Below, one piece after another: positions 47,909-64,000 of a stretch of 64,000 nt of DNA. Positions within the stretch are counted from its first letter, which is position 1. Every line of letters begins with the position of its first letter. Below the pieces are notes generated by a model. It saw only the letters and a list, made by a program, of their open reading frames with translations. It was not told the origin of the DNA and did no database searches. The translations under genes were made by a program, and so were the position numbers. This stretch comes from Candidatus Marinacidobacterium sp. (lineage in GTDB: Bacteria > Acidobacteriota > Vicinamibacteria > Marinacidobacterales > Marinacidobacteraceae), in the NCBI GenBank assembly GCA_965220965.1, contig CBDCRI010000001.1, positions 224,001-288,000 of the forward strand, read 5' to 3'.

Positions 47909-47964
47909 CGCTCCTTCGAAGGGTCGGCATTTTACAGCGCCTGCCGCGCCGGGGCGGCGGGGAA

Positions 47965-48176: not shown

Positions 48177-48193
48177 GAGGCGGGCTTGCATGG

Positions 48194-48281
48194 TGGCGGA
48201 GGCTGTGGGGATCGAACCCACACACCCTTTCGAGCATCACCGGCCTCCAACCGGCTTAGCGCGCCAGCCGTGCGAGCCTCC
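48194..48281 (-). tRNA. tRNA-Ser(GGA), atypical D arm
   Basis: GGAGGCT/AGCCTCC acceptor, G73, long variable arm, loop TT-GGA-GG; encoded CCA. Confidence 0.8.
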
Positions 48282-48331
48282 GTGGTTTCCTTCGCGGCGC
48301 CCCGCTTGCCGGGAGCGGGGCGCCGGCCGCG

Positions 48332-48419
48332 TGGCGGAGGCTGTGGGGGTCGAACCCACACGCCCTTTCGAGCATCACCGGGTTCAAGCCGGCTTAGCGC
48401 GCCAACTGTGCGAGCCTCC
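48332..48419 (-). tRNA. tRNA-Ser(TGA), atypical D arm
   Basis: Near-copy of 48194-48281 with loop CT-TGA-AC; encoded CCA. Confidence 0.8.
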
Positions 48420-48428
48420 GCGATCGAG

Positions 48429-48504
48429 TGGCCTGCCCGGGAGGACTCGAACCTCCGTCCTGCGCCTTAGAAGGGCGCTGCTCCATCCGCTGAGCCACGG
48501 GCAG
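48429..48504 (-). tRNA. tRNA-Arg(TCT)
   Basis: Full cloverleaf; GCGCC-CTTCTAA-GGCGC; paralog of the Arg(GCG) gene; encoded CCA. Confidence 0.9.
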
Positions 48505-48516
48505 TGGGAACGAAAC

Positions 48517-48603
48517 TGGCGGAGAGGGCGGGATTCGAACCCGCGCAGGCTTTCACCCTCCCGCTTAGCAAGCGGGCGCCATAAACCGCTCGGCCACCTC
48601 TCC
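48517..48603 (-). tRNA. tRNA-Ser(GCT)
   Basis: Canonical class II cloverleaf; CCCGC-TTGCTAA-GCGGG; encoded CCA. Confidence 0.9.
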
Positions 48604-48655
48604 GGTTCTTGCGCTGCCGGAGGCGCGCCCGCGACGCGGGCCGTTCCCGGCGAAT

Positions 48656-48745
48656 TGGCGGAGGCTGTAGGGATCGAACCCACACGGCCCTCTCGGGCCA
48701 TCACCCGTTTCGAGCGGGATAAGCACGCCAGCCTTGCGAGCCTCC
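48656..48745 (-). tRNA. tRNA-Ser(CGA), atypical D arm
   Basis: GGAGGCT acceptor, loop CT-CGA-AA, GGCCC-GAGA-GGGCC variable arm; encoded CCA. Confidence 0.8.
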
Positions 48746-48750
48746 TGACT

Positions 48751-48824
48751 TGGTGGAGCGACAGGGACTTGAACCCTGATCTCCTGCCTGCGACGCAGGG
48801 GTTCTCCCGTTGAACCATCGCCCC
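48751..48824 (-). tRNA. tRNA-Ala(CGC)
   Basis: G3:U70 pair, A73, loop GT-CGC-AG; encoded CCA. Confidence 0.9.
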
Positions 48825-48858
48825 GTGCGGCGCCGGCCGGACCGCCGGCGCCCGCCAC

Positions 48859-48943
48859 TGGTACAGGGAGAGGGAGTCGAACCCCCACAGCCCGAAGGCC
48901 CGTGGTTTACAGCCACGTGAGCTCGCCATTGCTCAGCCCCTGC
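48859..48943 (-). tRNA. tRNA-Tyr(GTA)
   Basis: CGTGG-CTGTAAA-CCACG; long variable arm GGCC-TTCG-GGCT; A73; encoded CCA. Confidence 0.9.
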
Positions 48944-49004
48944 GAAAGGACCGGGCGCAGGGGCTCCCCGGCGACGGGGAGCCCAGCGCCCAAGACACCA
49001 ACCC

Positions 49005-49018
49005 GATTGTGAAAGATC
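49005..49018 (-). promoter_or_regulatory. boxA-like antitermination site
   Basis: GATCTTTCACAATC versus rrn boxA GCTCTTTAACAA; lies between the leader terminator and the first tRNA. Confidence 0.5.
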
Positions 49019-49032
49019 GCTTTCCGGGGCCG

Positions 49033-49074
49033 AAAACGAAGAAGCCCCGGAGGTTTTGAACCTGCCAGGGCTTC
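49033..49074 (-). terminator. Intrinsic terminator (attenuator) in the tRNA operon leader
   Basis: GAAGCCCTGG-C-AGGTT-CAA-AACCT-CCGGGGCTTC followed by TTCGTTTT. Confidence 0.8.
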
Positions 49075-49143
49075 GGAGGGGTACTTGTGTGCTCCGTCTG
49101 TCAGGCTCAAGGCCTTCCAGACGCAGTTCGCAGCTGGAACGGC

Positions 49144-49224
49144 CTACACGGCAACGCCGCGGGAACGCTTTCTTGAAGCGCCCGCTTGCCGAGGACTATA
49201 GAACCCGTTTTGCGAAGTAAGCAT
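49144..49224 (-). CDS. Putative leader peptide MLTSQNGFYSPRQAGASRKRSRGVAV
   Basis: ATG 9 nt after TATAAT (near-leaderless); stop overlaps hairpin 49110-49145; codons cover all nine array tRNAs. Confidence 0.65.
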   Translation of the reverse strand: MLTSQNGFYSPRQAGASRKRSRGVAV

Positions 49225-49233
49225 GATGGCTGA

Positions 49234-49263
49234 ATTATACCCCATTGGCCGAAGTCGGGGCAA
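49234..49263 (-). promoter_or_regulatory. Sigma70-type promoter of the tRNA operon
   Basis: TTGCCC-N18-TATAAT. Confidence 0.7.
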
Positions 49264-49358
49264 ATCGAAGTCTTGTCCAACGAGAAGTGAGCCTGAAGCA
49301 AGGGATGGTTTCCAGCGTGAAGCGAGCCCAGCCAGCGGGCTCCACTCTGCTCGGCGGT

Positions 49359-50486
49359 TCAGGCGTCGGGGGCATCGGCCAGCCGCTGAACTGCCGCGGA
49401 GTAGAATTCGGGAACGACCTCCGCACTGCGACACGCCCGATCAAGGCGAAGCGAGCACACCGCCGCTGGACACAGGCCGCCGAAGGGTTCCCAAACCGCG
49501 TCGCCGGGGTCAGTGGTCGCACTGATCGACCTCTCCACGAATTCCAGCGGCTTTTGGCTGCCGTGCAGGCTCTTGTACTTCCACCGCATTCCCTGACGCT
49601 CCCCGTTGATCCGTTCCTTGCCGGCCACCTGTGACTTGCGCCACACGTTGGTGACCCCGGCGGAGCAGCGGAACTTTGCGCGCATGCGGGACCATTGCTT
49701 GGCCGTTGTCGGCTGCTTGCCGTCTTGGCTGAAATAGGGTTTGCCGGCGGAGTGTCCGTGCTTGTTGGCGTAGTCAACGAGCCGTGCGAACGCCTCCGGC
49801 GGTGGGTAGTACCAGAGGTGATCGGCGGTTAGGTACTTTCGCGTGGCGGCATTGGCGACGCCGCAGGCATCGTTGGCCAAGCGCAAGGGCAGCCCGGCGC
49901 GGCGCCACTCGTGGCGGAGCCACTCCTGCATGGTCAGCGGCTTGCCGGACTCGGACGTGAAGCTCGCGGCCTTGACGTACTGGGCGCACACTTCCGTCAC
50001 CACGGGGAATTTCCGAAGCGTGCGGGTGTTGGCATTGCCAGCGATGTGGCCCAAGCCCTTGTCCCAGATGTGGCAGCTTCGGTACTCCCAGCCGTGCTCG
50101 GCCAGCAGGGGGTGAACGGTGGCCCAGCCGAGCTCGGAGTTCCAGAACCACAGCGTCGTCTCAGGCGTTGACCGCCTGGCCCAAGCCTCGACGTGAGGGC
50201 GGTACCAGTCAACGAGGCCATGGGCGGAGTGCAGGTCCCCCGGGAATCCGCTCAGGCCGCACGGCCCGTCCGCGATGATGCATGTCGGCGCCGGCCACTG
50301 TCCGTAGAGGGACTCCGCAGGACCAAAGTGAATCGTTGAAGCGGCTCGCTGGAAGGACTGGGGGTCAATCCACGCGGATGACGAAGCGTCCTCCATGCCG
50401 GTCGGCGCCGCATTCGTGCCGATTGGGGGGAATGGAGCTTGTGGTTCCGGAAACGGCGACCCTTGGCTGTCCGATTCACGCATCAT
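49359..50486 (-). CDS. Beta-class N4/N6 DNA methyltransferase-family protein
   Basis: IIADGPCG (motif IV variant), HIWDKG, HGSQKPL, VWEPFGG; lower GC. Confidence 0.8.
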   Translation of the reverse strand: MMRESDSQGSPFPEPQAPFPPIGTNAAPTGMEDASSSAWIDPQSFQRAASTIHFGPAESLYGQWPAPTCIIADGPCGLSGFPGDLHSAHGLVDWYRPHVEAWARRSTPETTLWFWNSELGWATVHPLLAEHGWEYRSCHIWDKGLGHIAGNANTRTLRKFPVVTEVCAQYVKAASFTSESGKPLTMQEWLRHEWRRAGLPLRLANDACGVANAATRKYLTADHLWYYPPPEAFARLVDYANKHGHSAGKPYFSQDGKQPTTAKQWSRMRAKFRCSAGVTNVWRKSQVAGKERINGERQGMRWKYKSLHGSQKPLEFVERSISATTDPGDAVWEPFGGLCPAAVCSLRLDRACRSAEVVPEFYSAAVQRLADAPDA

Positions 50487-51072
50487 GTCCGTTGACCCGA
50501 AGCTTCATTGTACGTGGGTTGAATCCCAAGCGGTGGCTGGCGATGCAGCGGTTGTCGGAGCAGATCGGTCGAGTCCTGAAAAACGACAGGAGCGAGCGCT
50601 TGATTTCGTTCCTGCATGAGCCGACGCGCCGGCTCCCCAAACAACCGGAGCGCGGCCCTCGCTTGGATGAGCCATCCGGCGCAAAAGCCTGGCGTGATTG
50701 CCTCTAAGTGCCTGAAGGGCCATCGACACGTGCTCGCGCCCCGCTTCGCGACTGGCAGCGCCAAGGCATGCGACCTGATGAAAGCCTCCATTTGGAAGGT
50801 TGACGACTCCGGAGGCCATGCGCCTTCGCAACGGCATTGCCGGCGCCCCATCCCTGCTTGAGACGGATGCAACGCCGCTGGCGCAGCGGCTTAGGGGAGA
50901 GTTCGGCACGAACTGGACCAAAGCCGAGGGCCGTGACGAATTCGCCATGGGCGGCAGGACGCGTTTCCATGAAGGCCACCTGCGGAATTCCTGCTGCGCC
51001 CTGCTGAGCGCAAGGGCGAGATTTCAGTGCTCCGCCCGCAAGGGGGGAAGGGCCTCCCGGCGGGGAGGGACA

Positions 51073-51909
51073 TCAAAACCCGCTTCGACTGGCCGGCAAG
51101 CCGTCCCAAGTCCTGCCGCCGAGAACGCGACCGGCCGCCTTCTTGCCGAATCGGCCCATAGGGGCGGAATGGGCGCCCCCATTGACCACGGCCCTTGGCA
51201 CTGCCCCGGGCACCGCATCGACCGGCGCCCAGTCCCCCCATTGCTTGAAATGGAAGGGCGTGCCGTGCGCTGCGCACTCGTCCCGGATGCCATGGAACCA
51301 ACTGGGATCGCTCGGCCTCGCCTGCGGGCCGCTTTCACCGCCGGCGATGACCCATTGGACGGACCCGGACTCCAACCAAGGCCCGAGCTCAACTTGGTCG
51401 AGAAGCGGTTCACAGGAAACGAACCGAATGCGCGCACCCGCATGGGCAAGGTGGGGAAGGCGCTTGTCCGCCCAACGCTGGCTTTCAACTGTGGCGCCAA
51501 GCCACACGTTGGCAGGCCAGTCGCCCTTCCAGGGCACCAGCCGCTGCGCCAAATGGGGCCGTTTGGTCAGCAGCAGCCAATCCAGATTTGGCGTCGCTTC
51601 GATGAGCTCCCACAACCGACGCCTCCAAGGCGCCAACCCCTTCCCCCACTCGAAGACATCCGCCATCGATGCGCAGAAAACGCGAAATCGCGTTCCGGTT
51701 CGAGCCGCCTCCTGGTTCCACGCGTGAGGCTGCCGCCAATACGCGACGCTTTGAAAGCGACGCGGCTTCCCGGCGGACCAGACGTCAAGCCCCAGACGCC
51801 TTGCCCAGGCTTCAGCGTAGCAGTGGTCGCAGGCCGGAGAGACCTTTGTGCAACCCCACCATGGATTGAAGGTGTGGTCCGTCCATTCGATCCTAGAATC
51901 ACGCGCCAT
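51073..51909 (-). CDS. DUF5131 (phage Gp37/Gp68) family protein
   Basis: SRIEWTDHTFNPWWGCTKVSPACDHCYAE, VFCASMADVF, LLLTKRP, FVSCEPLL, WVIAGGESG, FHFKQWG. Confidence 0.92.
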   Translation of the reverse strand: MARDSRIEWTDHTFNPWWGCTKVSPACDHCYAEAWARRLGLDVWSAGKPRRFQSVAYWRQPHAWNQEAARTGTRFRVFCASMADVFEWGKGLAPWRRRLWELIEATPNLDWLLLTKRPHLAQRLVPWKGDWPANVWLGATVESQRWADKRLPHLAHAGARIRFVSCEPLLDQVELGPWLESGSVQWVIAGGESGPQARPSDPSWFHGIRDECAAHGTPFHFKQWGDWAPVDAVPGAVPRAVVNGGAHSAPMGRFGKKAAGRVLGGRTWDGLPASRSGF

Positions 51910-52071
51910 GGAGCGATCCTCGCCAGTTGCTGAAGGGTTATCCCCAAAACCCACATATGGTCACATGTACAGCTTACCGCATGTTGGCAGCGAATGGACC
52001 TGCCCGCCAGTGGGACGAATGAACCGTACGGAAGGCGCGGGCGGCGCCAAGGGCCGGCGCGGCGGCGAAGG

Positions 52072-53163
52072 TCAGGCCGGTCCCGGGCCGAGGCCGGCCC
52101 GCGGCGCGGCCGGGCGCTGCCAGGGGGCGAGCGCGTCTCCGGAGGGCCGGCGCACCGGCATGCCGCCTCCGGGGCCCTCGCGAAAGGCCCGCCCAGGCCC
52201 GCTGCCGCCACGCACGGCATTGCCGGCCCCGGGGCCGACGTGGCGGGCGTCGCCGCCTCCGGGGCCGATCACGTAGAGCGTGCCTTGGCCGGCGGCCTCG
52301 ACGTCGAGCCGGTCTCCGGCCCGGACGCGCACGACCATGTCGCGTCCGTCGAGCGTGACCGAAGCCGACTCGGCGTCCGCCGGCAGGCCGAGCGCGCGGC
52401 GCAGCGCCGCGGCGTCGAACTCCGCCATTGCGGGCACCTCGCAGTCCCACGGGATCGCGTCCGGCGCGTCGAGCGCCCCGGCCTCGATGCGGAAGCGTTC
52501 GCGGTCGATGTCGTCGGCAAGCCGCGCGCTGTCCCCTGCCCGCAAGCTCCGGAAGGAGGCCTCCCTGGTGGAGGCGCTGAGGCGCAACGCGTAGTCGAGC
52601 GCGGGCGAGGCCGCGCGCCAGCCACGGACCTCCGCCTTCGAGCCGAAGCTGGCCAGCGCCTGGCAGTAGCGCTCGAAGGGATTCTTGAGCCCGCGCTGCC
52701 GCAGCAGCGCGGCCGCCACGCGAAGCCCGTGCGGAACGCTTCGCGGACCCCCAGCCAGGCGGGACGCAGCGAGCAGGAGGGCGCCCTCGACCTCCCAGCG
52801 GACGCGGCCGGGGCGGCCGGACCACTCATCCGCCCCGGCTGCCGAGTCGAAGCCCACCGCTGCCAGCGCGAGCCGCCGCGTGGCCGGATCCGGCGCTCCC
52901 ATTGCCAGCGCGTCGGCCAGGCAGCGCTTGCGCGTGCGGAGGTTGGGGCGGCGGGGTTCGCGGCCGGATGGGGCTGCCAGGAAGGATGCCCGCAAATTGC
53001 CCTGCCGCGGGTGCGCGGGAATCGGCCAAAACGACGCGTCCGGGTCGCCCCCGACCCTCCAAAGGGCCGGGTGCGGCAGCAGCGCGGCCGCCGTCTCCAG
53101 CGCGCAGCGCGTCTTGACGTCCTGGAACGCCGCCCGAGCGGCGCCTTCCGATTGCCCCACCAT
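52072..53163 (-). CDS. Hypothetical protein
   Basis: GCTACAAT -10 immediately upstream; long ORF with a Gly-rich C-terminal tail. Confidence 0.55.
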   Translation of the reverse strand: MVGQSEGAARAAFQDVKTRCALETAAALLPHPALWRVGGDPDASFWPIPAHPRQGNLRASFLAAPSGREPRRPNLRTRKRCLADALAMGAPDPATRRLALAAVGFDSAAGADEWSGRPGRVRWEVEGALLLAASRLAGGPRSVPHGLRVAAALLRQRGLKNPFERYCQALASFGSKAEVRGWRAASPALDYALRLSASTREASFRSLRAGDSARLADDIDRERFRIEAGALDAPDAIPWDCEVPAMAEFDAAALRRALGLPADAESASVTLDGRDMVVRVRAGDRLDVEAAGQGTLYVIGPGGGDARHVGPGAGNAVRGGSGPGRAFREGPGGGMPVRRPSGDALAPWQRPAAPRAGLGPGPA

Positions 53164-53201
53164 GCCGACCATTGTAGCGTTCGGCTGGCGCGCCGTCCGC
53201 C

Positions 53202-53657
53202 TCAGGGACCAGGTGGGGCCGGCTTGGCCAGCAGGCCCTTGGCTTCGCAGTGCGGGCGCAGCCCGGACTCCTTCAGGAACGCGGGCACGACGAAGGCCAG
53301 GGCCGTGCCGCACTGCGCGTCCACCAGCCGCCCTCCGCCGTCCGCAAACTGCCCGAAGGCGCGGCACAGCTCAATGGCCTCGGCCTCGCACTGGATGGGG
53401 CCCATCCCCTCGCAGAAGACCTCCTCGATGAGGGCCGTGCCCCTCGGCCAAGCGTCCCCGCCGTCCCCCGTCATGCCGTCGGCCATCACCGCCAGCATGC
53501 CCTGCAGGCCGCGCCACTCCGAGCAGGTCATGTCGACGTCGCCCGCCGCGGCATGCGCCCCCGCGTGCGCGGCCAGCGCCAGCAGCGCGAAGGCGCCTGC
53601 ACGCGCCGAGCCGACGATCGATGCGCGGCGCCGCCGTCGATGAAGCCCAGCCAACAT
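53202..53657 (-). CDS. Secreted six-cysteine helical protein, paralog of 55397-55861
   Basis: Signal-like hydrophobic segment ending AHA; RGLQGMLA.MADGM, PRGTA.IEE.FC, CGTALAF, FLKES.LRPHC shared. Confidence 0.75.
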   Translation of the reverse strand: MLAGLHRRRRRASIVGSARAGAFALLALAAHAGAHAAAGDVDMTCSEWRGLQGMLAVMADGMTGDGGDAWPRGTALIEEVFCEGMGPIQCEAEAIELCRAFGQFADGGGRLVDAQCGTALAFVVPAFLKESGLRPHCEAKGLLAKPAPPGP

Positions 53658-53902
53658 GGGGGCAGCTTGGCGGCTCCCCACCGGCGTGTCAACGGCGGCG
53701 CCGCAAGCCCCGCCAGCGCCCGTTCGGCCCTCAGCGGGCTGGGGCGGACCGGACCCTGGCCGGGCGGAAGTTGCTAGACTGCCTGCATGGTTGGGAATGC
53801 GCCCAAGGTGGGGGCCGCGGCGGGGCCGGAAGCCGCCGGGACGGGAGGCGCTCCCTCTCGGGGCGAGGCCCTGAATCCGGCCGGACGACCGGGCGCGTAG
53901 CC

Positions 53903-55186
53903 GTGCCCTGGCTGGACCGCCACAGGGAGAGCGAGCGCCTCGCCGGCGCGGCCGAGGCCGCCGCCCGCGAAGGCCGTGCCCAGGCCGCGCGCGAGCTGCG
54001 CCTGCAGGCGCCGCCCATGCGCACCCCGGGGAGGCCCGTCTCCCTTGAGGCGTTCCTCGCCGACCCCGTGGATCCGGAGCGTTCGGGGATCTTCGCCGGC
54101 CGCGCCGCCGAACTGCAATGGCTGCATGCGCAGGTCGCGACGATGCGCGGCATGTGGGAGCGCCGCGGCGAGGTGCGGGGCTCGATGCGGACGGTCACCG
54201 GGTGTCCCGGCATCGGCAAGACCGCCTTGCTGCGGCGGTTCGCCGACCGATGCGCGGACGAGCTCCTGACCGTCGAGGCAACGCCCGACGACCTGCGGTC
54301 CTTGGAGGCGCTGAACGAACGAGCCAGGGCGCGGGTCGCGCCCGCTTTGGGCGCCCTCCCCGAGGCCGAGCTCGCAACCTTCAGGCTCGACGCCGCCGGG
54401 CGGTTCCTGGGCAGGCTTGCCGAGCGGCACGGGATCGAGCGGCACGGCGTCCTGCTGCTGCTCGACGATGCGCAGCAGGTCGCGCAAGGCCATCACGATG
54501 CGGCCATCCACTTCCTGCACACCGGCTCGCTGGGCCAGCCGGTCTTCCCGTTCCTGTTCGGCTTGAACGGCACGCGCGACGCCCTTGAGCGGGCCGGCGC
54601 CCCGCGCGTTCCGCCGGAGAGCCGCATCGGCCTGTCGACGCTGCCTCCCGAGGACGCCGCAGCCGCGCTGCGCAACTTCGAACGGGCCTTCTCCGTGGAG
54701 GCGCCGCCGGACTTGGCCCAGCGCCTGTTGGCGGACAGCCGGGGCTTTCCGCAGCACCTGGACTCCGCCCTGCGGTCGCTGGGCGAGGAGTGGCTGAGGG
54801 CGGGGCGCCGAAAGGACCGCCTTGACGCAGCCGCGGTGGTGCACAGGGCACGGGCGCTGCGCGAGGCGTACTGCGAAGGCCGCTTCGGACCGCTGGCCAA
54901 AGACCCCCGCGCTGCCGGGCTGGTCGATGTCGCGAACCGGCAGGGCCTGACCGTTGCGCAACTGCACGTCGCGGCCACCCGGGCGCACCGGGACGGCGGT
55001 TGCGGTGCGAAGGAGGCGGAGGATGCGGCCACGGCCCTTGTTGCCGCCCTGTTTCGGGCCGGCGCGCTCTCCGAGGGCGACGACGGCATCTGCCGGACGC
55101 CCATTCCGTCATTCCTGGCGTGGATCCGCGACACGCGGAGCGGCGGGCGCCGCGCCGGGCCAGCGCCGCGCCGGCCTTCCCCGTGA
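53903..55186 (+). CDS. AAA_16/STAND-like P-loop ATPase
   Basis: FAGRAAEL, Walker A GCPGIGKT, Walker B LLLLDDAQ, GFPQHL; start uncertain (53903 or 54017). Confidence 0.8.
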   Translation: MPWLDRHRESERLAGAAEAAAREGRAQAARELRLQAPPMRTPGRPVSLEAFLADPVDPERSGIFAGRAAELQWLHAQVATMRGMWERRGEVRGSMRTVTGCPGIGKTALLRRFADRCADELLTVEATPDDLRSLEALNERARARVAPALGALPEAELATFRLDAAGRFLGRLAERHGIERHGVLLLLDDAQQVAQGHHDAAIHFLHTGSLGQPVFPFLFGLNGTRDALERAGAPRVPPESRIGLSTLPPEDAAAALRNFERAFSVEAPPDLAQRLLADSRGFPQHLDSALRSLGEEWLRAGRRKDRLDAAAVVHRARALREAYCEGRFGPLAKDPRAAGLVDVANRQGLTVAQLHVAATRAHRDGGCGAKEAEDAATALVAALFRAGALSEGDDGICRTPIPSFLAWIRDTRSGGRRAGPAPRRPSP

Positions 55187-55396
55187 TCCGGGGAATGGCG
55201 CCCCCGAGCCCGCCTTTGTGCGCGCATTCGCGCCAAGGGCCACGCCAGCTCGTGCAGCCGCTTGTTTGCGCTGCGGTGCCTGTCGTCACGGCGCCCTGAT
55301 CCGGCCGTTGCCCTGGGAGGCCGGCGCGGGGGGCTGGCGAAAACGGCGGCATGCGCCCGGCAGCCTGCGGCCTCGCCGGATTCCGCGACGTTCTCC

Positions 55397-55861
55397 TCAG
55401 GGACCGGCCTCAGGCCGCCCCTGCCCGTCCAGCAGGCCCTTGGCGTCGCAGTGCGGGCGCAGCTCGGACTCCTTCAGGAACGCGGCCGCGGCGAAGGCCA
55501 AGGCCGTGCCGCACCGCGCGTCCACCTGTCGGAGCAACTGCACGTCCTCGAACTGCGCGACGGCGCGGCACAGCTCAATGGTCCAGGCCTCGCACTCGAT
55601 GGGACCAATCTCCCTGCAGAAGGCCTCCTCGATGAATGCCGTGCCCCTCGGCACAGCGTCCTCGCCGTCCTGCGCCATGCCGTCGGCCATCTCCGCCAGC
55701 ATGCCCTGCAGGCCGCGCGAATTCGGGCAGGTGAATTCTAGGTCGCCGGCAGCGGTCTGGGCTCCCGCGTGCGCGGCCTGCGCCAGCAGCGCCAAGGCGG
55801 CCGCAAGGGCCGCGCCGCCGATTCGGGCGCGGAACCGCAGCCATTCCAGTTCGCCTTTCAT
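55397..55861 (-). CDS. Secreted six-cysteine helical protein, paralog of 53202-53657
   Basis: Same conserved blocks and six Cys as 53202-53657. Confidence 0.75.
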   Translation of the reverse strand: MKGELEWLRFRARIGGAALAAALALLAQAAHAGAQTAAGDLEFTCPNSRGLQGMLAEMADGMAQDGEDAVPRGTAFIEEAFCREIGPIECEAWTIELCRAVAQFEDVQLLRQVDARCGTALAFAAAAFLKESELRPHCDAKGLLDGQGRPEAGP

Positions 55862-56136
55862 GGACGGGAGATTGGTGGGTCTCCCCTCGGCTGTCAATGG
55901 GGGGGCGGCCCGGCCCATGCCGGCGCTGTCCGAACTCGACGCCTAGCGGCCCCGAGCGCTCGGGGCTCACCGCCGGCCGCGCTTGGGCCGGCCCTTGCCG
56001 CGGCGCTTGCGGCCGCGCTGCTCCGGCGGCCGCGCCGCCGCCTCGCGCACGGCCCGCTCCACCTCGGCGAACCGGTCATCCGGCTCGCCGCCGCTCATGG
56101 CATCGCTCCCAAGCGTGGGCTGCGGCGGCGTGCGCA

Positions 56137-56421
56137 TCAGGGGCTTGGCCCCGGCCGCGGCGAGCGGGCCGCCGCAGCCAGCCAAGCCTCCTCCGTGGGA
56201 GCCGTGATGGTCGCAACCGCGTTTTCGGCGGCGTATTGGACGCCTTCGGCAACGGTGTCGAACACCTCCAAGGAGATCATGTCCTGCGCCCGACCGGCCT
56301 CGGAGCTTTCGATGCGCAGGAACACCTCGCAGGCGCCGGTCTTGCCCAGCTCCTGCACGTCGATGCAGATCGTGTGCGTGGGGTCGCTCATGGTCCTCTC
56401 CGAAATGGGGTCGGACTCCAT
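56137..56421 (-). CDS. Small hypothetical protein
   Basis: Likely start 56391 (GAGAGG RBS); ends RPGPSP. Confidence 0.55.
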   Translation of the reverse strand: MESDPISERTMSDPTHTICIDVQELGKTGACEVFLRIESSEAGRAQDMISLEVFDTVAEGVQYAAENAVATITAPTEEAWLAAAARSPRPGPSP

Positions 56422-56487
56422 TATGGCATCCGGCGGGCCGCCGGCCCCCCGGAGGGCCCGGCGAAGGCGGTGCGGAGCCGGCGCCGC

Positions 56488-56712
56488 CTAGGAGGCCTTG
56501 GGGGATGCGGCCTGCTTGGCCGGGTTGATCCGGATGTGCTTGCGACCGCCCTCCTGGTAGCCGGACTGGCCGCGGGGGATCCGCTGCACGGAGCCGCCCG
56601 CCTTGAGGAAGCGCCGGGTGTCGGCGCGCAGGCGCTCGCGCGCCAGGTCTCGGCCCTCCTTGGAGGCGGTGGGGGGAAGCGCGTGGTAGCGCTCCAGCTT
56701 GCGTTGCGCCAT
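56488..56712 (-). CDS. SutA-like RNA-polymerase-binding domain protein
   Basis: SKEGRDLARERLRADTRRFLKAGGSVQRIPRGQSG matches the SutA-RBD pattern (L...M..FL..GG.V..I); GGGAG RBS. Confidence 0.7.
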   Translation of the reverse strand: MAQRKLERYHALPPTASKEGRDLARERLRADTRRFLKAGGSVQRIPRGQSGYQEGGRKHIRINPAKQAASPKAS

Positions 56713-56764
56713 GGTCAGGCTCCCGGCGTTGTCGTTGGTGTCCGCGGTCCCCGGGGGGCCGCTC

Positions 56765-57100
56765 TCAGTCCGCCGGCTTCGGCCCCGGATCGGGTCGTCC
56801 CGCCAGCATCGCGCGTATGCGCCTGTCCAGCCCCCCGGTGTACCCGCCGCGGCGCCGCACGGTGCGCTTCTGGCGGATCAGCGCGCAGAGCTGGCAGCGG
56901 CTGTTGTTGGCACGCTCCGGCTCCAGGGGCCGCTCGCAGTCGCGGCACAGGCCGCGGCGCTTGAGCTCCTGCCGGTAGGCCTGGTTCTCGGACTCGCCCT
57001 CCAGGACGTCGTAGTCCTCCACCCCCGGGTCCGGATCGCCCGACTCGTCCTTTCGGTCGCGCTGGGCCTCCCGCCGCAGGAATTCCGGTTCCATCAGCAA
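56765..57100 (-). CDS. Zinc-finger protein
   Basis: GLCRDC...RCQLC; GGAGG RBS; TGGTATAAT upstream. Confidence 0.7.
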   Translation of the reverse strand: MLMEPEFLRREAQRDRKDESGDPDPGVEDYDVLEGESENQAYRQELKRRGLCRDCERPLEPERANNSRCQLCALIRQKRTVRRRGGYTGGLDRRIRAMLAGRPDPGPKPAD

Positions 57101-57206
57101 CCTCCATGGGCGCCGCCGCCCTTTCTAACACAGATATTATACCATAGGCCGGCGCCGGGGCCTGCCGTGGCCTGCCGGGGCCGCGGCGGGGCTGCCCCCC
57201 GGCGCC

Positions 57207-57848
57207 TCAGGGCGAGGGCGAGGCGGCGGCCCTGCGCATGGCGTCGCTGACCGCGCGCCTGCGGCGCCGCTCGGACGGGGCCGCACGCTGAAGGGCCTCG
57301 CGCCCGGCCTGGTCGGGCGGACGCATCAGGGGTGCGGCCAGCCCCAGCGAGGCCTTGGCCCAGGCGTTGACCTCGTCGGGGTCGATGCCGCCCCGGCGCC
57401 TTTCGGCCACGAGCACGGCCTCGGCGACGGCGGCCTCGCCAATGAGCAGCGCATCGCGCGCCGCGGCTGCCGGGGACCGGGGCCGCGCCGCCCGCCCGGG
57501 CAGGCCGGCGGCGATCGAGCGCGCCCTCCATGCCTGCTCAAGCGTCAGGGCGGCCGCGCGGTACGCGCTGTCCGGGCGGGCCAGCTCGTCCTCGAGCCAC
57601 TGCCGCGCCGCCCTGCCGGCCGCCCTCACGCAGCGCTCCTTGGCGTCGTCGGCCATGCGTGCGGACTGCAAGGCCCTGGCGGCGACGCCCTCCTGGGCCG
57701 ACTGGACGCCTTTCAGCGCCTGGGCCATGGCGGTGGGCAGGATGACGAGGGGCTGGCCCGAGGCGAGCGCCGCCCCGTGCAGCAATTGGCGCGTGGCCGT
57801 CCGGGCCAGCAGCCGGCCATCGGGCGCCAAGGGCCGCACCGGCTTCAC
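57207..57848 (-). CDS. Degenerate PIN-like paralog of 27331-28275
   Basis: LAPDGRLL/VILPTA/RDALLIGEAAV/IDPDEVNAW align with VDANIL/VLPRV/GDRMVIAEASV/IDRRRVNAW. Confidence 0.65.
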   Translation of the reverse strand: MKPVRPLAPDGRLLARTATRQLLHGAALASGQPLVILPTAMAQALKGVQSAQEGVAARALQSARMADDAKERCVRAAGRAARQWLEDELARPDSAYRAAALTLEQAWRARSIAAGLPGRAARPRSPAAAARDALLIGEAAVAEAVLVAERRRGGIDPDEVNAWAKASLGLAAPLMRPPDQAGREALQRAAPSERRRRRAVSDAMRRAAASPSP

Positions 57849-58097
57849 CGTGCGGCCAATGCGCCTGCGGCGGCGCTTGCAGCGGGTTCGCTCAAGGCGG
57901 CTCCTTGCCGTCGGCCCCTTCCCCCGTGCCCATCATACAGCGGGAGGAGGCTCCGGGCGCAGGCAGCTGGCGCGGCGGCAGGCATGTGCGCTGGAGCCGG
58001 ATTCACGTAACATGCCCGCCCACGCCCGCCCAAGCTTAGCCCCGATGGGGGCTGGGCCTTGCGGCGGTTCGACAACTCTTGGTTGGGAGATGACGGG

Positions 58098-58454
58098 ATG
58101 GGCCGCTTCCTTTGCCTGTGCGCCTTGACGGCCGCCGCCGGGGCGGCGTTGAGTGATGGGGCGAGCCGTTGGGACTGCTACGGAAGCCGCGCCGAGAGGG
58201 ATGCGGGCGTCGGTGACGTGGTTGTGCTCGCCGTCCATCAAGGCGATGCCGGGGAGGTCACCGCAAACGGAATCACGTACGAAGCGGACGTTGATGTCCA
58301 TGGCTTCGACAGGCGCTGGTTCTTCGGACCGCCCCAGGAGGACGGCTCCCGGCCATTCGTGTTCGAGATCGACGCGGGAAGGCAAGGCGAGTACTATGAC
58401 TCCACATTCCTTTTTGCCGAGCCCTCATTGATCGTGCACTGCAGGAGCGGTTAG
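58098..58454 (+). CDS. Small secreted beta-rich protein
   Basis: N-terminal signal-like segment; W.C ... GFDRRWFFG ... C-terminal Cys. Confidence 0.65.
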   Translation: MGRFLCLCALTAAAGAALSDGASRWDCYGSRAERDAGVGDVVVLAVHQGDAGEVTANGITYEADVDVHGFDRRWFFGPPQEDGSRPFVFEIDAGRQGEYYDSTFLFAEPSLIVHCRSG

Positions 58455-58779
58455 CCGAGGTCCGGGAGGGTTTCAGCGGACGAGCGGCGCCGCCCCTCCG
58501 GACGCCGTCAAGGGCGGCAGCCCCGGTTGGGGCCGTCGGCAGCGGGCCGCAGAGATTCATGCCAACCGCATGGGCACGGCGCAACGCGGCCGGCTCGGGC
58601 GTCCGTGCGGGTTCAGAAACACGTCGGAGCCTGCGCTCGGCAAAGGAAGCGGCGCATTGCGCCCTCGAACCAACAACGAGCTTTCGGTTCGCCACGACCG
58701 CAAGGCCTTGCCAGTGTTTGATAGTGGAGCCCAGATGAGCCACAGTGTCAAAGACACCCGGCAAGCGGGGAAGCGCATC

Positions 58780-59040
58780 ATGGCCGCAAACGAGATTGTG
58801 CGCGCCCGTGTAGACGGGCGGCTTAAGGCGGAGGCCGCCACCATATTGGCCACCATGGGACTCACGATATCCGATTTTGTGCGCATCAGCCTAGCCAAGG
58901 TGGTGAGCGAGCACGGGCTGCCGTTTGACATGCGGGTGCCTAACCCACTGACCGCCGAAACCCTTGCGCGGAGCGAGCGCGGCGAGGATCTCCACCAAGC
59001 TGAAAGCGCCAAAGCCCTGTTTGGGGACTTGGGCATCTAG
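58780..59040 (+). CDS. dinJ: RelB/DinJ-family antitoxin
   Basis: IVRARVDGRLKAEAATILATMGLTISD..R..L..V..E.GLPF...VPN..T...L...GI. Confidence 0.9.
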   Translation: MAANEIVRARVDGRLKAEAATILATMGLTISDFVRISLAKVVSEHGLPFDMRVPNPLTAETLARSERGEDLHQAESAKALFGDLGI

Positions 59041-59110
59041 GTGCGCATCCCGACCGTCAGGGGCAATTCAAGCGTGATCTGAAAGCAGCCCAGAAGCGTG
59101 GCAAGGACAA
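59041..59110 (+). pseudogene. Truncated, frameshifted yafQ-like toxin remnant
   Basis: GTG directly after dinJ; SGQFKRDLKAAQKRGKD in a shifted frame, then similarity stops. Confidence 0.7.
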
Positions 59111-59307
59111 TGCCGCGCGGCGCGTGGCGCCGACGGTCCGGAACACGACCCGCAGCCCGTGCGATAGGCATCCAGCAGGCCCGCTTGAGCGTGCTAGGCG
59201 GTCCGGGGCTCCTAGCGCAGCAACGCGATTCGGGTTGGTTCCCAAGGCCCCCCAATTCGGGCGGAGGCAAATGAAACGGGGGGAAGCGGGGTGTCCGTCA
59301 GTGTGAG

Positions 59308-59337
59308 TTGACATTGGCCCGCGCCCTCGCTCATGAT
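59308..59337 (+). promoter_or_regulatory. Sigma70-type promoter upstream of the solitary CRISPR repeat
   Basis: TTGACA-N18-CATGAT; predicted transcription start about 59344. Confidence 0.6.
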
Positions 59338-59343
59338 CCCGAC

Positions 59344-59370
59344 GTCGCCTTGATCGGCGCGGATTGAAAC
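59344..59370 (+). CRISPR. Solitary shortened type I-C-like repeat
   Basis: GTCGCC-TTGATC-GGCG-CGGATTGAAAC (GTCGC start, hairpin, GGATTGAAAC end). Confidence 0.6.
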
Positions 59371-59534
59371 ATGCAGTTTGTCCCCAAGGACGAAGGCCTT
59401 GAGCCTGGCCCGGCGCCTCAACGGGCGCCGGGCCTCCATGCCGCATCCGCCCCTTCGAGCTCCGCCGCCAGCAAGGACGCCGCCAACGAGGCGTCCCGGC
59501 TGGCGAAGGCTGAGGCGCCCGCGCATGACGCAAT

Positions 59535-59621
59535 GCGTTCCCGCGACGCGGGATGACCCGAGCAACGTGCGCAGTACGGCAGTCGCGACGTAACGTTCCC
59601 CGCCTTGCGGGGATGCTTGGG
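59535..59621 (+). CRISPR. Degenerate type I-E-like repeat-spacer-repeat mini-array
   Basis: GCGTTCCCGCGACGCGGGATGACCCG, 32-nt spacer, ACGTTCCCCGCCTTGCGGGGATG. Confidence 0.6.
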
Positions 59622-59642
59622 CTTCGGCCCAAGGCGCGCGTC

Positions 59643-59798
59643 AAGCGCATCCCCGCATGGGCGGGGCCGTCATTCGGAATCAACGCACCATCGGCCCGAT
59701 AAAGGGCCCATCCCCGCATTCGGCGGGGAAGGCGCTTGCCTTGCGCGCTACCGCCTGCTTCACCTCGTGGGGTCCATCCCCGCCTGGGCGGGGCCATG
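59643..59798 (-). CRISPR. Degenerate type I-E-like mini-array (3 repeats, opposite orientation)
   Basis: ATCCCCGC-n-GCGGGG at 59649, 59710 and 59776; best copy reads CATGGCCCCGCCCAGGCGGGGATGGACCC on the minus strand; spacers about 32 and 36 nt. Confidence 0.65.
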
Positions 59799-60428
59799 CG
59801 GCAATGGCTGATGATAGCGGAGGCGGGGGCTCAGCGCACAAGGGACAGGCCGGCCCGGCGCCATTCCCTGACCCAGTCGATGTGGCGGGCCTCGCCCTCC
59901 TCCTTGGCCTCCCCGCACGGGAACGGGCACGGGGAGCCCGGGCCGGACCAGCTCCCGCACGAGCAGTGATGGCCGGTGTGGCGCCCGGCCAGCCGCCCGC
60001 CTTGGCCCGACGGCCTTCGCCAGCCGCCGCCCTCGGCGGCGAAGCGCCCCAGCGAGGTCGGGCTGCCGCTTGAGCCGTCCACGCCGGACCGAAGGACCGT
60101 CACCGTCCTCCGCTGCGCCGCACCGCTGCGCTTGACGGTCGTGGCGGGCATCAGACCTGTCATGGTCTCTCGCAAGCGCCTCCAACCCGCTGTTTTTCCG
60201 CTTTATTCCGTCGCCGATCCAAGCCGGGCGGCCCTGGAGAGGGGAGCGGCCGGCGCCTTGGAGGCGGCTGTGCAGGGGTGCGGGAGGGGCTGGCCAGGCC
60301 CGCGTTGCTAGAATCGCCGTGACGCCACCGAACAGGAAGCGCGCCAGTGCCGGGCGACCGACCTTCGGACCCTGCCAAGCGGCCGGCCCCCTCCGCGGGC
60401 CGGGCGCCGCGCTAGGCGCGCAAGGGCC

Positions 60429-61040
60429 ATGGCCAAGCTGACGACGAAAGCCGAGTTCCTCTACCAGGTCGACCTGCCCGACGGCGTGGACGCCGCCGTT
60501 GCCGCGGCGGCGATGGATGCGGTGATGAACGCGCCCGCCCGTTGGGAGGCGCCCTCCCGCGCGGATGCTCGGTTCCCGGACGCCTTCCCCATGGGCTGGC
60601 AGGGCGCGGGGGAGCATCCGCAACGGGTCCGCAAGGCCGCGGAGCCGCTGGCCCTGGCCCTGCTCGAAGCCGTTCGCGGCTTCGAAGGCGCGGTCCCGGC
60701 CGCGGCCGGGGGCGGCCCCCGCCCCCTCTCGCCGGGCGGCGCCAAGTTCAGGGACGGCGGCAAGCACGGTGCGCGCGGCGTGCTGGTGGGCGCCTTCGGC
60801 GCGGGCGACCCGGAGGCCGCGGCGGCTGTGACGTCCGCGGTCCTCAAGCACTTCGGCCTCGACCCGTTCTGGTTCGAGTGGCGGGAGCCGGAAGGCCAGC
60901 CGGCCCCGGCGCGGATGGGCGCCGCGGCCTGCAGCCCGGCCGGCGGGGAGGTCATTGACCTGTCGCCGGGAAGGCGGCCAGCCGCCGCCGGGGGCCGCCG
61001 CCAGCCGGAATCGAGCCGGCCCGGCCCGCCGCGGCCCTAG
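60429..61040 (+). CDS. Hypothetical protein (family of 8346-8996 and 10496-11155)
   Basis: GDPEAAAAVTSAVLKHF...WFEW...GAAAC; TGCTAGAAT upstream. Confidence 0.65.
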   Translation: MAKLTTKAEFLYQVDLPDGVDAAVAAAAMDAVMNAPARWEAPSRADARFPDAFPMGWQGAGEHPQRVRKAAEPLALALLEAVRGFEGAVPAAAGGGPRPLSPGGAKFRDGGKHGARGVLVGAFGAGDPEAAAAVTSAVLKHFGLDPFWFEWREPEGQPAPARMGAAACSPAGGEVIDLSPGRRPAAAGGRRQPESSRPGPPRP

Positions 61041-61195
61041 GACGGACGCCCCGCCATCGCCCGGACGCCCGTGGCGAAGCGCAAGCCCCGGCACCGCCAA
61101 GCCCCCCCTCCGGGGCGGGGGCGCGGGTCCGGCGCGGGCGCGAACTCCTACAATGAGGCCAAGCCCGCAGGTTCCGTCCACCGAGGAGATTCCCC

Positions 61196-62569
61196 ATGAC
61201 CGAGCACCTTGACGGCACGCCCGGCGTCCCCGGCGCGGCCTTCGCCGTGAGCGCGTCCGACGCGCTGGCCGCCGCTCGCCACCTTGCGGCCCCGGAGGGC
61301 CACGGCGGCCGCCCCGAGTGGGACATGGCCATGGCCGAGCGCCTCGCCGAGGAGGGCTTCCTGGCGCGGCTGCGGCGGGCGGCGGCGCCGGAGAGCGCGC
61401 AGCCCGTGTCGCCGCTGGCCGCGCTTTGGACGGAAAGGCTGCTGGGCGCGGCCCCGCGCTACCTGCGGGAGGACGGGCAATGGCTGGCGTCAACCGCGGG
61501 CGCCATGCTGCCGGCCAGCCGGCTCACCGGCAGCTTCAGCGATTCCTGGCGAATCCGCCGGGCGCGCGATGCCGCCTGGAACGCGGCGCGGGACGCCTTG
61601 GCCTGCGCCCTGCCGCTCCTGCCGCCGGAGGCTTGGCGGGGGCCGCCCGGGCTTGCGGAGGGCCTTGGCCCTGAGCCGGCGGTCGAGCCCCTGGACGGGA
61701 ACGCGCCCTGCGACCGCCTCTCCGGACGGCGCCTGCTGGGCATGATCGAGCGCTTGGGCAGGGACGCCGCCGCAGCTCGGATCGATGAGCGCTCCGAGCC
61801 GCTCCGGCCCGGTCCGGAGGCCGCCCGCAGGCTCGGGCTGATGGCCGATTGCGTGTCCCTTTCGGCGTTTGTCGAGCTGGAGGTGCGGTACGTTTGGGCG
61901 GGGCCCGTCCCGGGAGCGACGCGCCAGCGGGTCTTCAGGGAGGCCTTGGGCGGAGCGGTCCGGGCGCTGGGGGGCGAGGGGATCGGCGATGCGCTGGTCC
62001 GGTCCGCCATCGGCCTGGCGACGGTCCGCTTCCACGGCGGGCCAGCCGAGTCGGGGCGGCACCTGGCGCACGCCCATCGGGTCGAGGCGCTGGTGAACGT
62101 CCACGGCGGCACCCCGGAGCAACGGTGCGCCGCCCTGCTCCACCGCTTTCGCGACGCCGAGCCCCCGCCGGACCCAGAGATTGCCGACGGGCTCGCGGGG
62201 CTCAGCCTGAGCGGGCACTTCGGCCCGCAGGTGGCCGCCCTGGTCGAGGGGCTGTCGGAAAGGAGCCGGCCCGGCGACGGGGACCGGGCCGCCCGCCGGG
62301 CCATCGACCACGCCCATTGGGCGGACCAGCCGCCGATGGCGAAGGCGGTGCGCTGCGCGGACGTCGCCTGCCGCCTGACGGCCTTGCGCGATGGGGACGC
62401 GGACGCCGCGAGGCGCGGAATCGACGAGGCGCGCGCGCTGGTGCCGCGGCTCAGCGACGCAGTGCCCAAGTCGCTGTGGACCGCGGCCGAGGAGGCGCTG
62501 GCGGCGGCTGAGGCGCTTTTTCCGGAGGGGCCGGCGGCCGGCCTGCGTTCGAGCCCGCCCGCGCCCTGA
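61196..62569 (+). CDS. Protein with a C-terminal HD (SpoT/Mesh1-like hydrolase) domain, degenerate
   Basis: HLAHAHRV, AALLHR (vs LLHD), FGPQVAALVEGLS, AVRCAD; GAGGAG RBS. Confidence 0.7.
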   Translation: MTEHLDGTPGVPGAAFAVSASDALAAARHLAAPEGHGGRPEWDMAMAERLAEEGFLARLRRAAAPESAQPVSPLAALWTERLLGAAPRYLREDGQWLASTAGAMLPASRLTGSFSDSWRIRRARDAAWNAARDALACALPLLPPEAWRGPPGLAEGLGPEPAVEPLDGNAPCDRLSGRRLLGMIERLGRDAAAARIDERSEPLRPGPEAARRLGLMADCVSLSAFVELEVRYVWAGPVPGATRQRVFREALGGAVRALGGEGIGDALVRSAIGLATVRFHGGPAESGRHLAHAHRVEALVNVHGGTPEQRCAALLHRFRDAEPPPDPEIADGLAGLSLSGHFGPQVAALVEGLSERSRPGDGDRAARRAIDHAHWADQPPMAKAVRCADVACRLTALRDGDADAARRGIDEARALVPRLSDAVPKSLWTAAEEALAAAEALFPEGPAAGLRSSPPAP

Positions 62570-62587
62570 GCGCGGCCCCAGGCGGCC

Positions 62588-63145
62588 CTACGGGCCGATC
62601 GAGGCGCCGCGGGGCTTGGCCGCGGGGGGCAGCCGGGACGCCTCGCGCTCGGCCGAGAAGGGAAATCCCATGCGCGCCATCGCCCCCGCCATGGCGGCCA
62701 CCGCGCCGGCGGCGTGGTGGATGCTGTCCTCAAGCACGTTGGCGCCCAGCCAGTCCGCCCGCCAAAGGCCGCGCCAGGAGCCGTCGTCCTCCAGCTGGCG
62801 CGTGACCGCGATGATCGTGGGGCCGCCGAACTGCCTCCAGGGCCGGTCCCCGCGCCTGGCGGGCGTGATGTAGGCGTAGGCGTGGACGGTGCCCGCGGGG
62901 TTGCCGCGCCACTCGTGGCGCGGCACCGCGAGTCGCCTTCCCACCGCGTAGCCGCTCATGCCCTCGATCCGCGCCAGGTCGCCCACCCACCACGGCTCGC
63001 GCTCCCACATCTCGGCCTCGATGAGCTCGCCCGCGGTGATCTCCCCAGCTTTGCGGCGCGCGGCCGCCTCGGGGGCCCATCGGCCGGTGTCCCGAACGAG
63101 CAGGCCGTCGTCGAGGGCCGCCCCGATGTCGCCGTAGACCTTCAT
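62588..63145 (-). CDS. Hypothetical protein
   Basis: CCTATAAT upstream; GAGGGG RBS. Confidence 0.65.
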   Translation of the reverse strand: MKVYGDIGAALDDGLLVRDTGRWAPEAAARRKAGEITAGELIEAEMWEREPWWVGDLARIEGMSGYAVGRRLAVPRHEWRGNPAGTVHAYAYITPARRGDRPWRQFGGPTIIAVTRQLEDDGSWRGLWRADWLGANVLEDSIHHAAGAVAAMAGAMARMGFPFSAEREASRLPPAAKPRGASIGP

Positions 63146-63205
63146 GGTGCCGTGCCCCCCTCAATTCGCGTGCCTGCCTTGCCGCCCTCGGGCGGCGCTC
63201 CCCGA

Positions 63206-63985
63206 TTATAGGAAGCCGCCGGCCCGCGGGGCCGGGCACCCGGCTCCCGGGGCGCAGCTTCGGCGAGGCGCCCAGCGCCCGGCCCGCAGGGCCTCCCAGG
63301 CGGCGCGGTCGATCAGCGTCTCGCGGTGGCGCGCCCGCTCGTGGGCGCTGAGCCGCTCGAACGGCCACTGGGCGAGGGCGTCGCCGATGAAGGCGGCCGC
63401 TGCGGGCGACAGCTCGCGGACGCGCCCGCCCGCGCAGGCGCGGACCAGCCGGACCGCCATGCCGAGCGGGTTCGGGGAGTCCCTCAGCACCACGTCGAGG
63501 CGGCCCTTGGCCAGATCCTCGAACCACCCGTCCGCGCACAGCAGCCGGCCGTCCGAGAGCCGCCAGAGCGCGCTCTCCCAGTTGCTGATCGTGGTGCGCA
63601 GCAGGGACTCGACGCCGGCGTACTCGACCAGCCCGGCGCGCACCGCCCAGGTCTCGCCAGCGGCCCAGAAGTCCACGGCCCAGCGGCGCGTGCGCGCCCG
63701 CCGCCCCCCGAGCCGGCTGTCGCCGAGCGGGACGGCGCCGGACGGCAGGGCCACGGCGCGGACGTCCCCCTCGCAGACCAGGTCGAGGTCGGCGCCGTCG
63801 CGCGGCGCGCCGAGCAGCGCGAGGTCGCGCAGCGCCCCGCCGAACAGCCAGACCTCGCCCTGAAGGGCGAGTCCGTCCAAAAGCTGCGCCAGGGGCGGGT
63901 CGTCGCGCCGCTCGCGGTCCAGGAAGCGCCTGGCCCGGCGCCGCAGCTCGGCGGCGCCCCCGGCCGGACGTCGGGGCGCGTTCAC
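63206..63985 (-). CDS. Nucleotidyltransferase (poly(A) polymerase/CCA-adding head-like)
   Basis: VWLFGGALRDLAL...ADLDLV, VDFW motifs. Confidence 0.75.
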   Translation of the reverse strand: MNAPRRPAGGAAELRRRARRFLDRERRDDPPLAQLLDGLALQGEVWLFGGALRDLALLGAPRDGADLDLVCEGDVRAVALPSGAVPLGDSRLGGRRARTRRWAVDFWAAGETWAVRAGLVEYAGVESLLRTTISNWESALWRLSDGRLLCADGWFEDLAKGRLDVVLRDSPNPLGMAVRLVRACAGGRVRELSPAAAAFIGDALAQWPFERLSAHERARHRETLIDRAAWEALRAGRWAPRRSCAPGAGCPAPRAGGFL

Positions 63986-64000
63986 GGGGCCGGGCCGGCG

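Follow-up and report, generated by a model that had tools for sequence, protein, structure and literature searches.

A putative degenerate type I-C mini-CRISPR of crRNA-like build, in tandem with a type I-E unit, on a RepA replicon of Candidatus Marinacidobacterium sp.

The replicon and the locus

The genome consists of two contigs (3.25 Mb), and the window, i.e., the whole stretch of 64,000 nucleotides that we have analyzed, corresponds to C2:224001-288000 of the contig C2, a RepA replicon of 363 kb and 73.4% G+C. The window codes for an AbiEii protein, methylases, a ribonucleotide reductase and RepA_C (13811-15064, minus strand). Beside the RepA_C gene (about 13520-15064) we have found at least 10 tandem repeats of 21-22 nt, of the CGTTGCAGTTGGACTG type, which are probably iterons belonging to the origin of the replicon. 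As RepA and iterons both lie in the window, the mobile-type replicon assumed in an earlier note on this DNA was borne out. Movement to type I-C hosts is not evident, since the genome yielded no transfer gene of the VirB4 type.

The earlier note had also reported no cas genes, which holds for the window (none among the 53 ORFs scanned) but not for the replicon, where a type I-E Cascade operon and a type I-D locus are located (Table 1). The genes of the I-D locus (C2:315700-326950) are in an unusual order: Cas6, large subunit, Csc2, Csc1, Cas3', Cas4 and Cas1. On the other strand the repeat of this locus ends in GGGGATTGGGAAC, and the array may thus be transcribed towards the cas genes. The I-E operon (region C2:155518-164000) has neither a type I-E Cas1 nor a Cas2, and no Cas3 above the cut-off was detected anywhere in the genome; yet many I-E arrays and eroded repeats are found on C2, which carries all the I-E arrays. 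At C2:330600-333800 repeated blocks of ~600 nt, which end in the same leader-like sequence, lie between several short I-E arrays, and here array and leader seem to have been duplicated in tandem. As for type I-C, no Cas8c (Csd1), no Cas7 of the Csd2 type and no second Cas5 were found in the whole genome, and the host I-C Cascade for which a decoy had been proposed found no counterpart. In the Csd1 search of this genome the control was silent, and the same model gave 609 bits on another genome of the family (G006).

On the forward strand, a sigma-70-type promoter is followed, 6 nt past its CATGAT, by the 27-mer GTCGCCTTGATCGGCGCGGATTGAAAC, which is present in a single copy within the 64-kb window and has an ATG directly after it. 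By the spacing, transcription would be expected to start ~7 nt past the -10, in the first bases of the 27-mer. A hairpin of 12 pairs, including one G-U (GGCCCGGCGCCT-CAAC-GGGCGCCGGGCC), begins 36 nt past the would-be handle. Promoter, 27-mer and hairpin were all found where the earlier note had placed them, with its parse of the hairpin 1 nt off. The 102-nt RNA that would begin at 59344 has a predicted fold of -53.5 kcal/mol (z = -3.98), and none of 200 shuffles was as good. No T-run was found after the hairpin, which is therefore not a classical terminator, and Rfam gave 0 matches at E up to 1 between 55000 and 64000. A scan for the consensus promoter gave a single match in 58500-60500, one of only two in 44001-64000 (20 kb, both strands). 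The combination TTGACA-N16-18-CATGAT has exactly two copies in the genome, both of them followed after 6 nt by a repeat-like unit; by our own estimate, from 161 TTGACA sites and the base composition, the chance expectation for the pair is ~0.03.

Table 1. Coordinates of the features of the locus (positions in the window) and of the cas loci of the replicon (positions with the prefix C2)
Feature	Position	Strand	Remarks
Type I-E Cascade operon	C2:155.5-160.3k		weak Cse1, Cse2, Cas7e, Cas5e, Cas6e
Type I-D locus	C2:315.7-325.5k		genome's single Cas1; array with 28-nt repeat
Promoter, sigma-70-type, TTGACA-N18-CATGAT	59308..59337	+	10/12 consensus positions; -35 TTGACA 59308-59313, 18-nt gap, -10 CATGAT 59332-59337; predicted start ~59344
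psiR1, degenerate type I-C repeat	59344..59370	+	4-bp stem CGCC/GGCG; 3' part GCGCGGATTGAAAC intact
Would-be 5' handle of psiR1	59360-59370		11 nt
I-C psi-spacer, ATGCAGTTTGTCCCCAAGGACGAAGGCCTTGAGCCT	59371..59406	+	36 nt; length fits I-C spacing (~65-67 nt repeat period)
psiR2, 12-bp hairpin	59407..59434	+	core GCGCCTCAACGGGCGC at 59413-59428; 3' handle part lost
Decayed promoter copy, CTGGCG-N18-CATGAC	59500..59529	+	aligned with promoter of paralogous I-E unit at C2:22470
I-E psiR1, GTT-CCCGC-GAC-GCGGG + ATGACCCG	59537..59560	+	8-nt handle ATGACCCG
I-E psi-spacer, AGCAACGTGCGCAGTACGGCAGTCGCGACGTA	59561..59592	+	32 nt; 24/32 identical to paralog's spacer
I-E psiR2, ACGTT-CCCCGC-CTT-GCGGGG-ATGCTTGG	59593..59620	+	hairpin kept, 3' handle diverged; 0/24 positions differ from paralog
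Terminal stem-loop, CTTGGGC-TTCG-GCCCAAG	59616..59633	+	closes I-E unit; predicted fold
Decayed I-E mini-array	59643..59797	-	repeats 59797-59770, 59732-59704, 59670-59643; 89-100% identical to replicon's I-E arrays

Upstream of the unit, a RelB/DinJ antitoxin gene (58570-59040) precedes what is left of a RelE/YafQ-type toxin gene, its first ~70 nt. The homology to plasmid toxin-antitoxin pairs ends at 59109, ~200 nt upstream of the I-C unit, and the cut in the toxin gene points to a deletion or rearrangement scar. From 59080 to 59780 the strong third-position G+C of the adjoining genes is missing (up to 0.78 here versus 0.87-0.97 in the neighbouring genes). No acr-like neighbours were detected, none of 11 neighbouring ORFs matching PHROGs.

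Type I-C ancestry of the two pseudo-repeats

We have compared the 27-mer with true type I-C repeats. The only one of the 54 other genomes of the order with an I-C array is G006, of the same family, with 31 repeats GTCGCCCCCCGCACGGGGGGCGCGGATTGAAAC located beside Cas3, Cas5, Csd1, Cas7, Cas4 and Cas1. Six and 14 terminal nucleotides of psiR1 (GTCGCC and GCGCGGATTGAAAC) are identical to this repeat. When the array repeats of Rhodanobacter and Rhodobacterales are added to the alignment, GTCGC(C) and the last 14 nt are again identical, the sole difference being a shortened upper stem. The earlier description of an I-C-like repeat with an intact handle thus agrees with real arrays, one of them in the same family. 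With 27 nt and a 4-bp stem, psiR1 is nevertheless not a full-length I-C repeat (31-33 nt, with a G+C stem of 6-7 bp), such as GTCGCGCCCTCACGGGCGCGTGGATTGAAAC, the X. citri repeat given in the text of PMC9504256. We have also scanned one genome per species for GTCGC-N8-12-GCGCGGATTGAAAC, which gave at least 118 loci. Among the 80 of them that were examined, 36 hold two or more matches and are mostly arrays of 31-nt repeats (e.g., GTCGCCCCCTCACGGGGGCGCGGATTGAAAC) ~65 nt apart.

The downstream hairpin, psiR2, has kept the stem of the repeat and lost the handle. Its core GCGCCTCAACGGGCGC can be turned by one deletion and one insertion into GCGCCCTCACGGGCGC, the stem-loop found in the repeats of Rhodanobacter and X. 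citri (the comparison drew on the repeats of the loci L097 and L076 and on that of X. citri). The word 'solitary' used in the earlier note does not fit: as the hairpin is itself a degenerate I-C repeat, 59308-59434 would be a one-spacer mini-CRISPR. From the shared ends, the likeness of the psiR2 core and the presence of a stem-loop near the handle, we conclude that 59344-59434 has its origin in two I-C repeats around a 36-nt spacer. The decay is selective, the handle being intact in psiR1 and the hairpin in psiR2, just those repeat parts that a mature crRNA retains. The degenerate psiR1/psi-spacer/psiR2 build is the one that characterizes CreR/CreA mini-CRISPRs.

Like the canonical I-C arrays of G006 and the X. 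citri repeat, the unit has the ends GTCGC.../...GCGCGGATTGAAAC, a stem-loop with a TCAC-like loop and a spacer of ~36 nt. Unlike them, it consists of two repeat units only, both degenerate, with 27 nt in psiR1 versus 31-33 nt, and has neither cas genes nor array growth of the leader type.

We have considered that the resemblance might be accidental, the promoter serving the ORF 59371-59556 (61 codons) or only the I-E unit downstream. The ATG directly after the handle opens a frame with a weak G+C pattern by codon position, and the handle by itself carries little weight: the 10-mer GGATTGAAAC, with up to one mismatch, was found at least once in 67 of 100 shuffles of the window, i.e., alone it is not significant. 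However, the ORF has no homolog and no Pfam or PHROG hit, its third-position G+C is the low one mentioned above, and the 12-bp hairpin lies inside it. Besides, the exact 10-mer is present in three copies in the 3.25-Mb genome, the other two without a repeat-like context, and its combination with a 5' GTCGC at repeat distance is the sole one in the genome. The I-C-type stem-loop pattern also has three copies, one of them 43 nt downstream of the handle of the 59344-59370 unit. A rough estimate from these genome counts, for a pattern written after the sequence was seen, gives ~3e-5 for the coincidence of handle and stem-loop. With handle, GTCGC, stem-loop and promoter, each rare in the genome, coinciding within 130 nt, an origin other than CRISPR is very unlikely. 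Judged on its sequence, 59308-59434 reads as a real, repeat-derived and promoter-led degenerate type I-C mini-CRISPR with the build of a crRNA mimic.

The neighbouring type I-E unit

Located ~100 nt downstream and on the same strand (59537-59620), we have identified what by its repeats is a second crRNA-like mini-CRISPR, in this case of type I-E. Hairpins, an 8-nt handle, a 32-nt spacer and a cognate Cascade encoded in the same cell are all present, and the hairpin loops lack one base relative to the host I-E repeat (GTTGGCCCCGCCTGCGCGGGGATGGACCC). The earlier note had passed over this unit, the inverted decayed I-E array that follows it and the I-E and I-D cas loci of the replicon.

The I-E unit has a paralog on the same replicon (C2:22486-22591, 87% identical), and the genes flanking the two are not homologous. 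Aligned with each other, the two copies show 1 difference in 53 repeat positions and 8 in the 32 of the spacer (Fisher p = 0.0014), a contrast that argues for constraint on the repeats. The paralog has the promoter TTGACA-N18-CATGAT 6 nt before its first repeat, and the only other copy of this promoter in the genome is the one that leads the I-C unit. The promoter at the corresponding place of the 59537-59620 unit is eroded (CTGGCG-N18-CATGAC), suggesting that this unit may depend on read-through from 59308.

No counterpart of the 2-kb region was detected in 40 other genomes, nor of the 136-nt I-E unit in 54. The pattern of the I-E psiR1 gave 0 viral matches and, in 400 other genomes of the class, only single matches with two mismatches, at about the control level. 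The I-E psi-spacers were without a convincing site in the genome as a whole, in the surroundings of both copies and at the promoter of cas8e. One unpublished genome (G033) is part of the counts for the order and the class; none of the positive claims depends on it.

Comparable units, targets and possible roles

The other 44 of the 80 examined loci, among the matches listed, hold a single match, and many of these are coding-sequence accidents. Several have the same build as the 59308-59434 unit: promoter-like A+T, an I-C-like unit of 27-31 nt with an altered stem, ~30 nt and a strong hairpin. In the locus L079, for example, TTGACA-N17-TACAAT is followed after 6 nt by GTCGC. Csd1 is encoded in all five genomes tested for such solo units, and in four of the five, by coordinates and with contig identity inferred from matching positions, the unit lies just upstream of cas5-cas8c. 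Twelve loci were checked for targets, and in four the body of the unit has a nearby TTC-flanked partial match with mismatches at positions 6 and 12, the signature of cas-regulating crRNA-like RNAs; the 59344-59434 unit, among these 12, has the build without the target. By eye, no seed in common with the I-C psi-spacer was seen in any of the 44 listed single-match loci. In the solo units of L095, L102, L061 and L086, located upstream of cas5-cas8c, the TTC-flanked site is matched at 10-12 of the 12 base-pairing positions within the first 14, and by this pattern they look like type I-C cas-regulating RNAs.

There is prior evidence of similar elements. The arrangement described in the earlier note, in which a promoter leads a handle, a spacer-length body and a hairpin at the 3' end, does match the layout of known crRNA-like RNAs. 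The Racr are solitary-repeat RNA anti-CRISPRs, and the text available of Camara-Wilpert et al. (Nature 2023, PMC10651486) counts 90 plasmid-encoded units and includes a type I-C one, RacrIC1. Like them, our unit is repeat-like, of type I-C flavour and preceded by its own promoter, and it lies on a mobile element and not in a cognate CRISPR-Cas locus. Unlike them, it has a first repeat whose stem is shortened and no acr gene in its neighbourhood, its host is without type I-C, and of the 54 other genomes of the order only G006 has an I-C array. A further difference is the second repeat-derived hairpin one spacer-length on, by which the predicted product resembles a whole crRNA and not a lone repeat.

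The CreR/CreA are crRNA-like RNAs from degenerate mini-CRISPRs inside cas loci, for which the accessible part of 10.1101/2023.03.10.532045 names types I-B, I-E and V-A and not I-C. Our unit shares with them, as described in that part, the psiR1/psi-spacer/psiR2 build and the conservation of the crRNA-forming parts alone, a build also found in the I-C solo units beside cas5-cas8c in other genomes. It differs in that it adjoins no I-C cas gene, let alone a cognate cas operon, and in that no PAM-flanked partial target at a promoter was found for it. The Cracr, crRNA-like anti-CRISPR regulatory RNAs of phages and plasmids, are represented in the part of 10.1101/2024.10.29.618823 at hand by 219 candidates, I-C and I-E included, 16 of them on plasmids. 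The same text describes a smaller hairpin loop in their psi-repeats, takes at least 9 PAM-proximal matches to known CreA/CreR as the criterion, and states that the units are often stacked in one transcription unit, always for one CRISPR type. The 59308-59434 unit is likewise crRNA-like, borne by a mobile element and outside cas loci, but here, unlike the stacks described in that text, an I-C and an I-E unit stand in tandem.

No PAM-flanked target of the I-C psi-spacer was detected in the own genome, in the I-C locus of G006 or in the order, and no TTC-flanked promoter match either locally or genome-wide. Of the TTC-flanked matches, those checked are either intragenic or antisense to a HigA-like gene. 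Over the 55 genomes of the order the matches were no more than those of a reversed-pattern control, and at least 9 PAM-proximal matches were found neither there, nor in the I-C locus of G006, nor in the metagenome and viral scans. Handle plus seed gave 38 metagenome and 3 viral matches, all unrelated and chance-like, and no homolog. One G+C-rich match of this kind (L178) was rejected, being a LysR-type intergenic region. The BLAST comparison of 59338-59625 with 72,556 plasmid and 50,697 phage records (E up to 10) yielded chance-level matches only and no protospacer. In the I-D cas operon there are three partial matches (at least 12/14) of the I-E and I-C psi-spacers (C2:317291-317322, 321709-321744 and 323442-323473), one of which lies within the large-subunit gene, 60-90 nt from its start. 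With shuffled spacers such a three-match cluster was obtained in 0.17% of 3000 trials; we have not counted it as evidence, as none of the three has the right PAM and a housekeeping tile on C1 scores equally.

The lack of a protospacer bears on the idea of a genuine one-spacer mini-array, with which the plasmid would turn the I-C machinery of a host on a plasmid or phage that competes with it. Mini-arrays on plasmids and viruses are already known, according to the part consulted of PMC6858448, the 36-nt body has the normal length of an I-C spacer, and arrays usually end in a degenerate repeat. However, here degeneration extends to the first repeat, as is seldom the case in an active array, and the host has no I-C cas genes. 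Together with the empty search of plasmid and phage records, this makes such an array highly improbable.

The reading that we prefer, tentatively, is that the unit may be an active plasmid-borne crRNA mimic of the Racr/Cracr class, i.e., an anti-CRISPR or regulatory RNA, with presumed transcription, processing, Cas binding and effect. The locus would produce one crRNA-like RNA, with the 5' handle CGGAUUGAAAC from psiR1, a body of 36 nt and the repeat-type hairpin of psiR2 at its 3' end. In a cell with an I-C system of the matching repeat type, Cas5c would process this RNA, which would then be loaded by Cas7 and Cas8c instead of true crRNAs and act as a decoy; it might also direct Cascade to a promoter that it matches in part. 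The host at hand offers the I-C mimic no partner. It would be the first of two tandem crRNA-like genes on the same strand, the second being the I-E one (59537-59620), for which the replicon encodes a Cascade. The repeat ancestry and its selective decay, the layout of the solo units elsewhere, the promoter, the constraint on the I-E unit and the plasmid context all argue for a mimic, as does the fact that plasmid-borne I-C repeat mimics are already in print. The reading is weakened by the missing I-C cas genes and VirB4, the single I-C array in the order, and the failure to find a PAM-flanked target, a homolog or an acr-like neighbour. It is weakened too by the 4-bp stem of psiR1, with which recognition by Cas5c is putative, and by the decayed surroundings (truncated toxin gene, eroded I-E repeats and eroded promoter). 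The intact promoter, in addition, could persist simply to drive the I-E unit downstream.

Several of these points would also fit an orphaned relic, a CreR/CreA-type regulator or a one-spacer array of an I-C locus since lost from the replicon and now inert. Comparable solo units normally adjoin cas5-cas8c, and that neighbour is missing here, as are the I-C cas genes in the genome at large; the scar 200 nt upstream and the decayed I-E repeats next door and elsewhere on the replicon point in the same direction, and so does the lack of target, homolog and transfer genes. Against it, the -35 hexamer has stayed perfect and both the AT-rich handle of 10 nt and the hairpin of 12 bp have survived in a replicon of 73% G+C, by a decay that is selective and not uniform, and the promoter motif, of which the genome has two copies, serves in its other place a constrained crRNA-like unit. 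We regard a relic as possible, if somewhat doubtful. It would be the record of a lost I-C system and would show which parts of a crRNA-like gene survive longest.

As an active mimic, on the other hand, the unit would be a plasmid-borne RNA that imitates the guides of type I-C in a lineage that rarely has this type, paired with an I-E mimic that the nuclease-less Cascade of the plasmid itself could use. It would extend the classes of RNA anti-CRISPRs and cas-regulating RNAs to a high-G+C megaplasmid and to mixed-type tandems, and would offer a compact natural scaffold for I-C guides (promoter, 27-nt pseudo-repeat and hairpin). The class of crRNA-like RNAs is already known; what is unusual is the mixed tandem of I-C and I-E with a shared promoter design. 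A more specific proposal would be a mixed-type operon of I-C and I-E crRNA-like RNAs under this design, in which the I-E member and its paralog would programme the I-E Cascade, devoid of Cas3 and of Cas1/2, for RNA-guided gene control and the I-C member would disarm I-C systems in other cells. We consider this unlikely.

Among the runs searched for 58800-60300 no RNA run was found. Contigs of three runs were also compared, and apart from one contig of 223 nt they gave matches to the source assembly, to I-E repeat copies and to the RelB region only, a result that says nothing on expression. That low-depth contig, from another public run (X2), is identical to 59619-59841, a stretch of the eroded I-E array, and the same or a very close replicon may thus occur in another sample.
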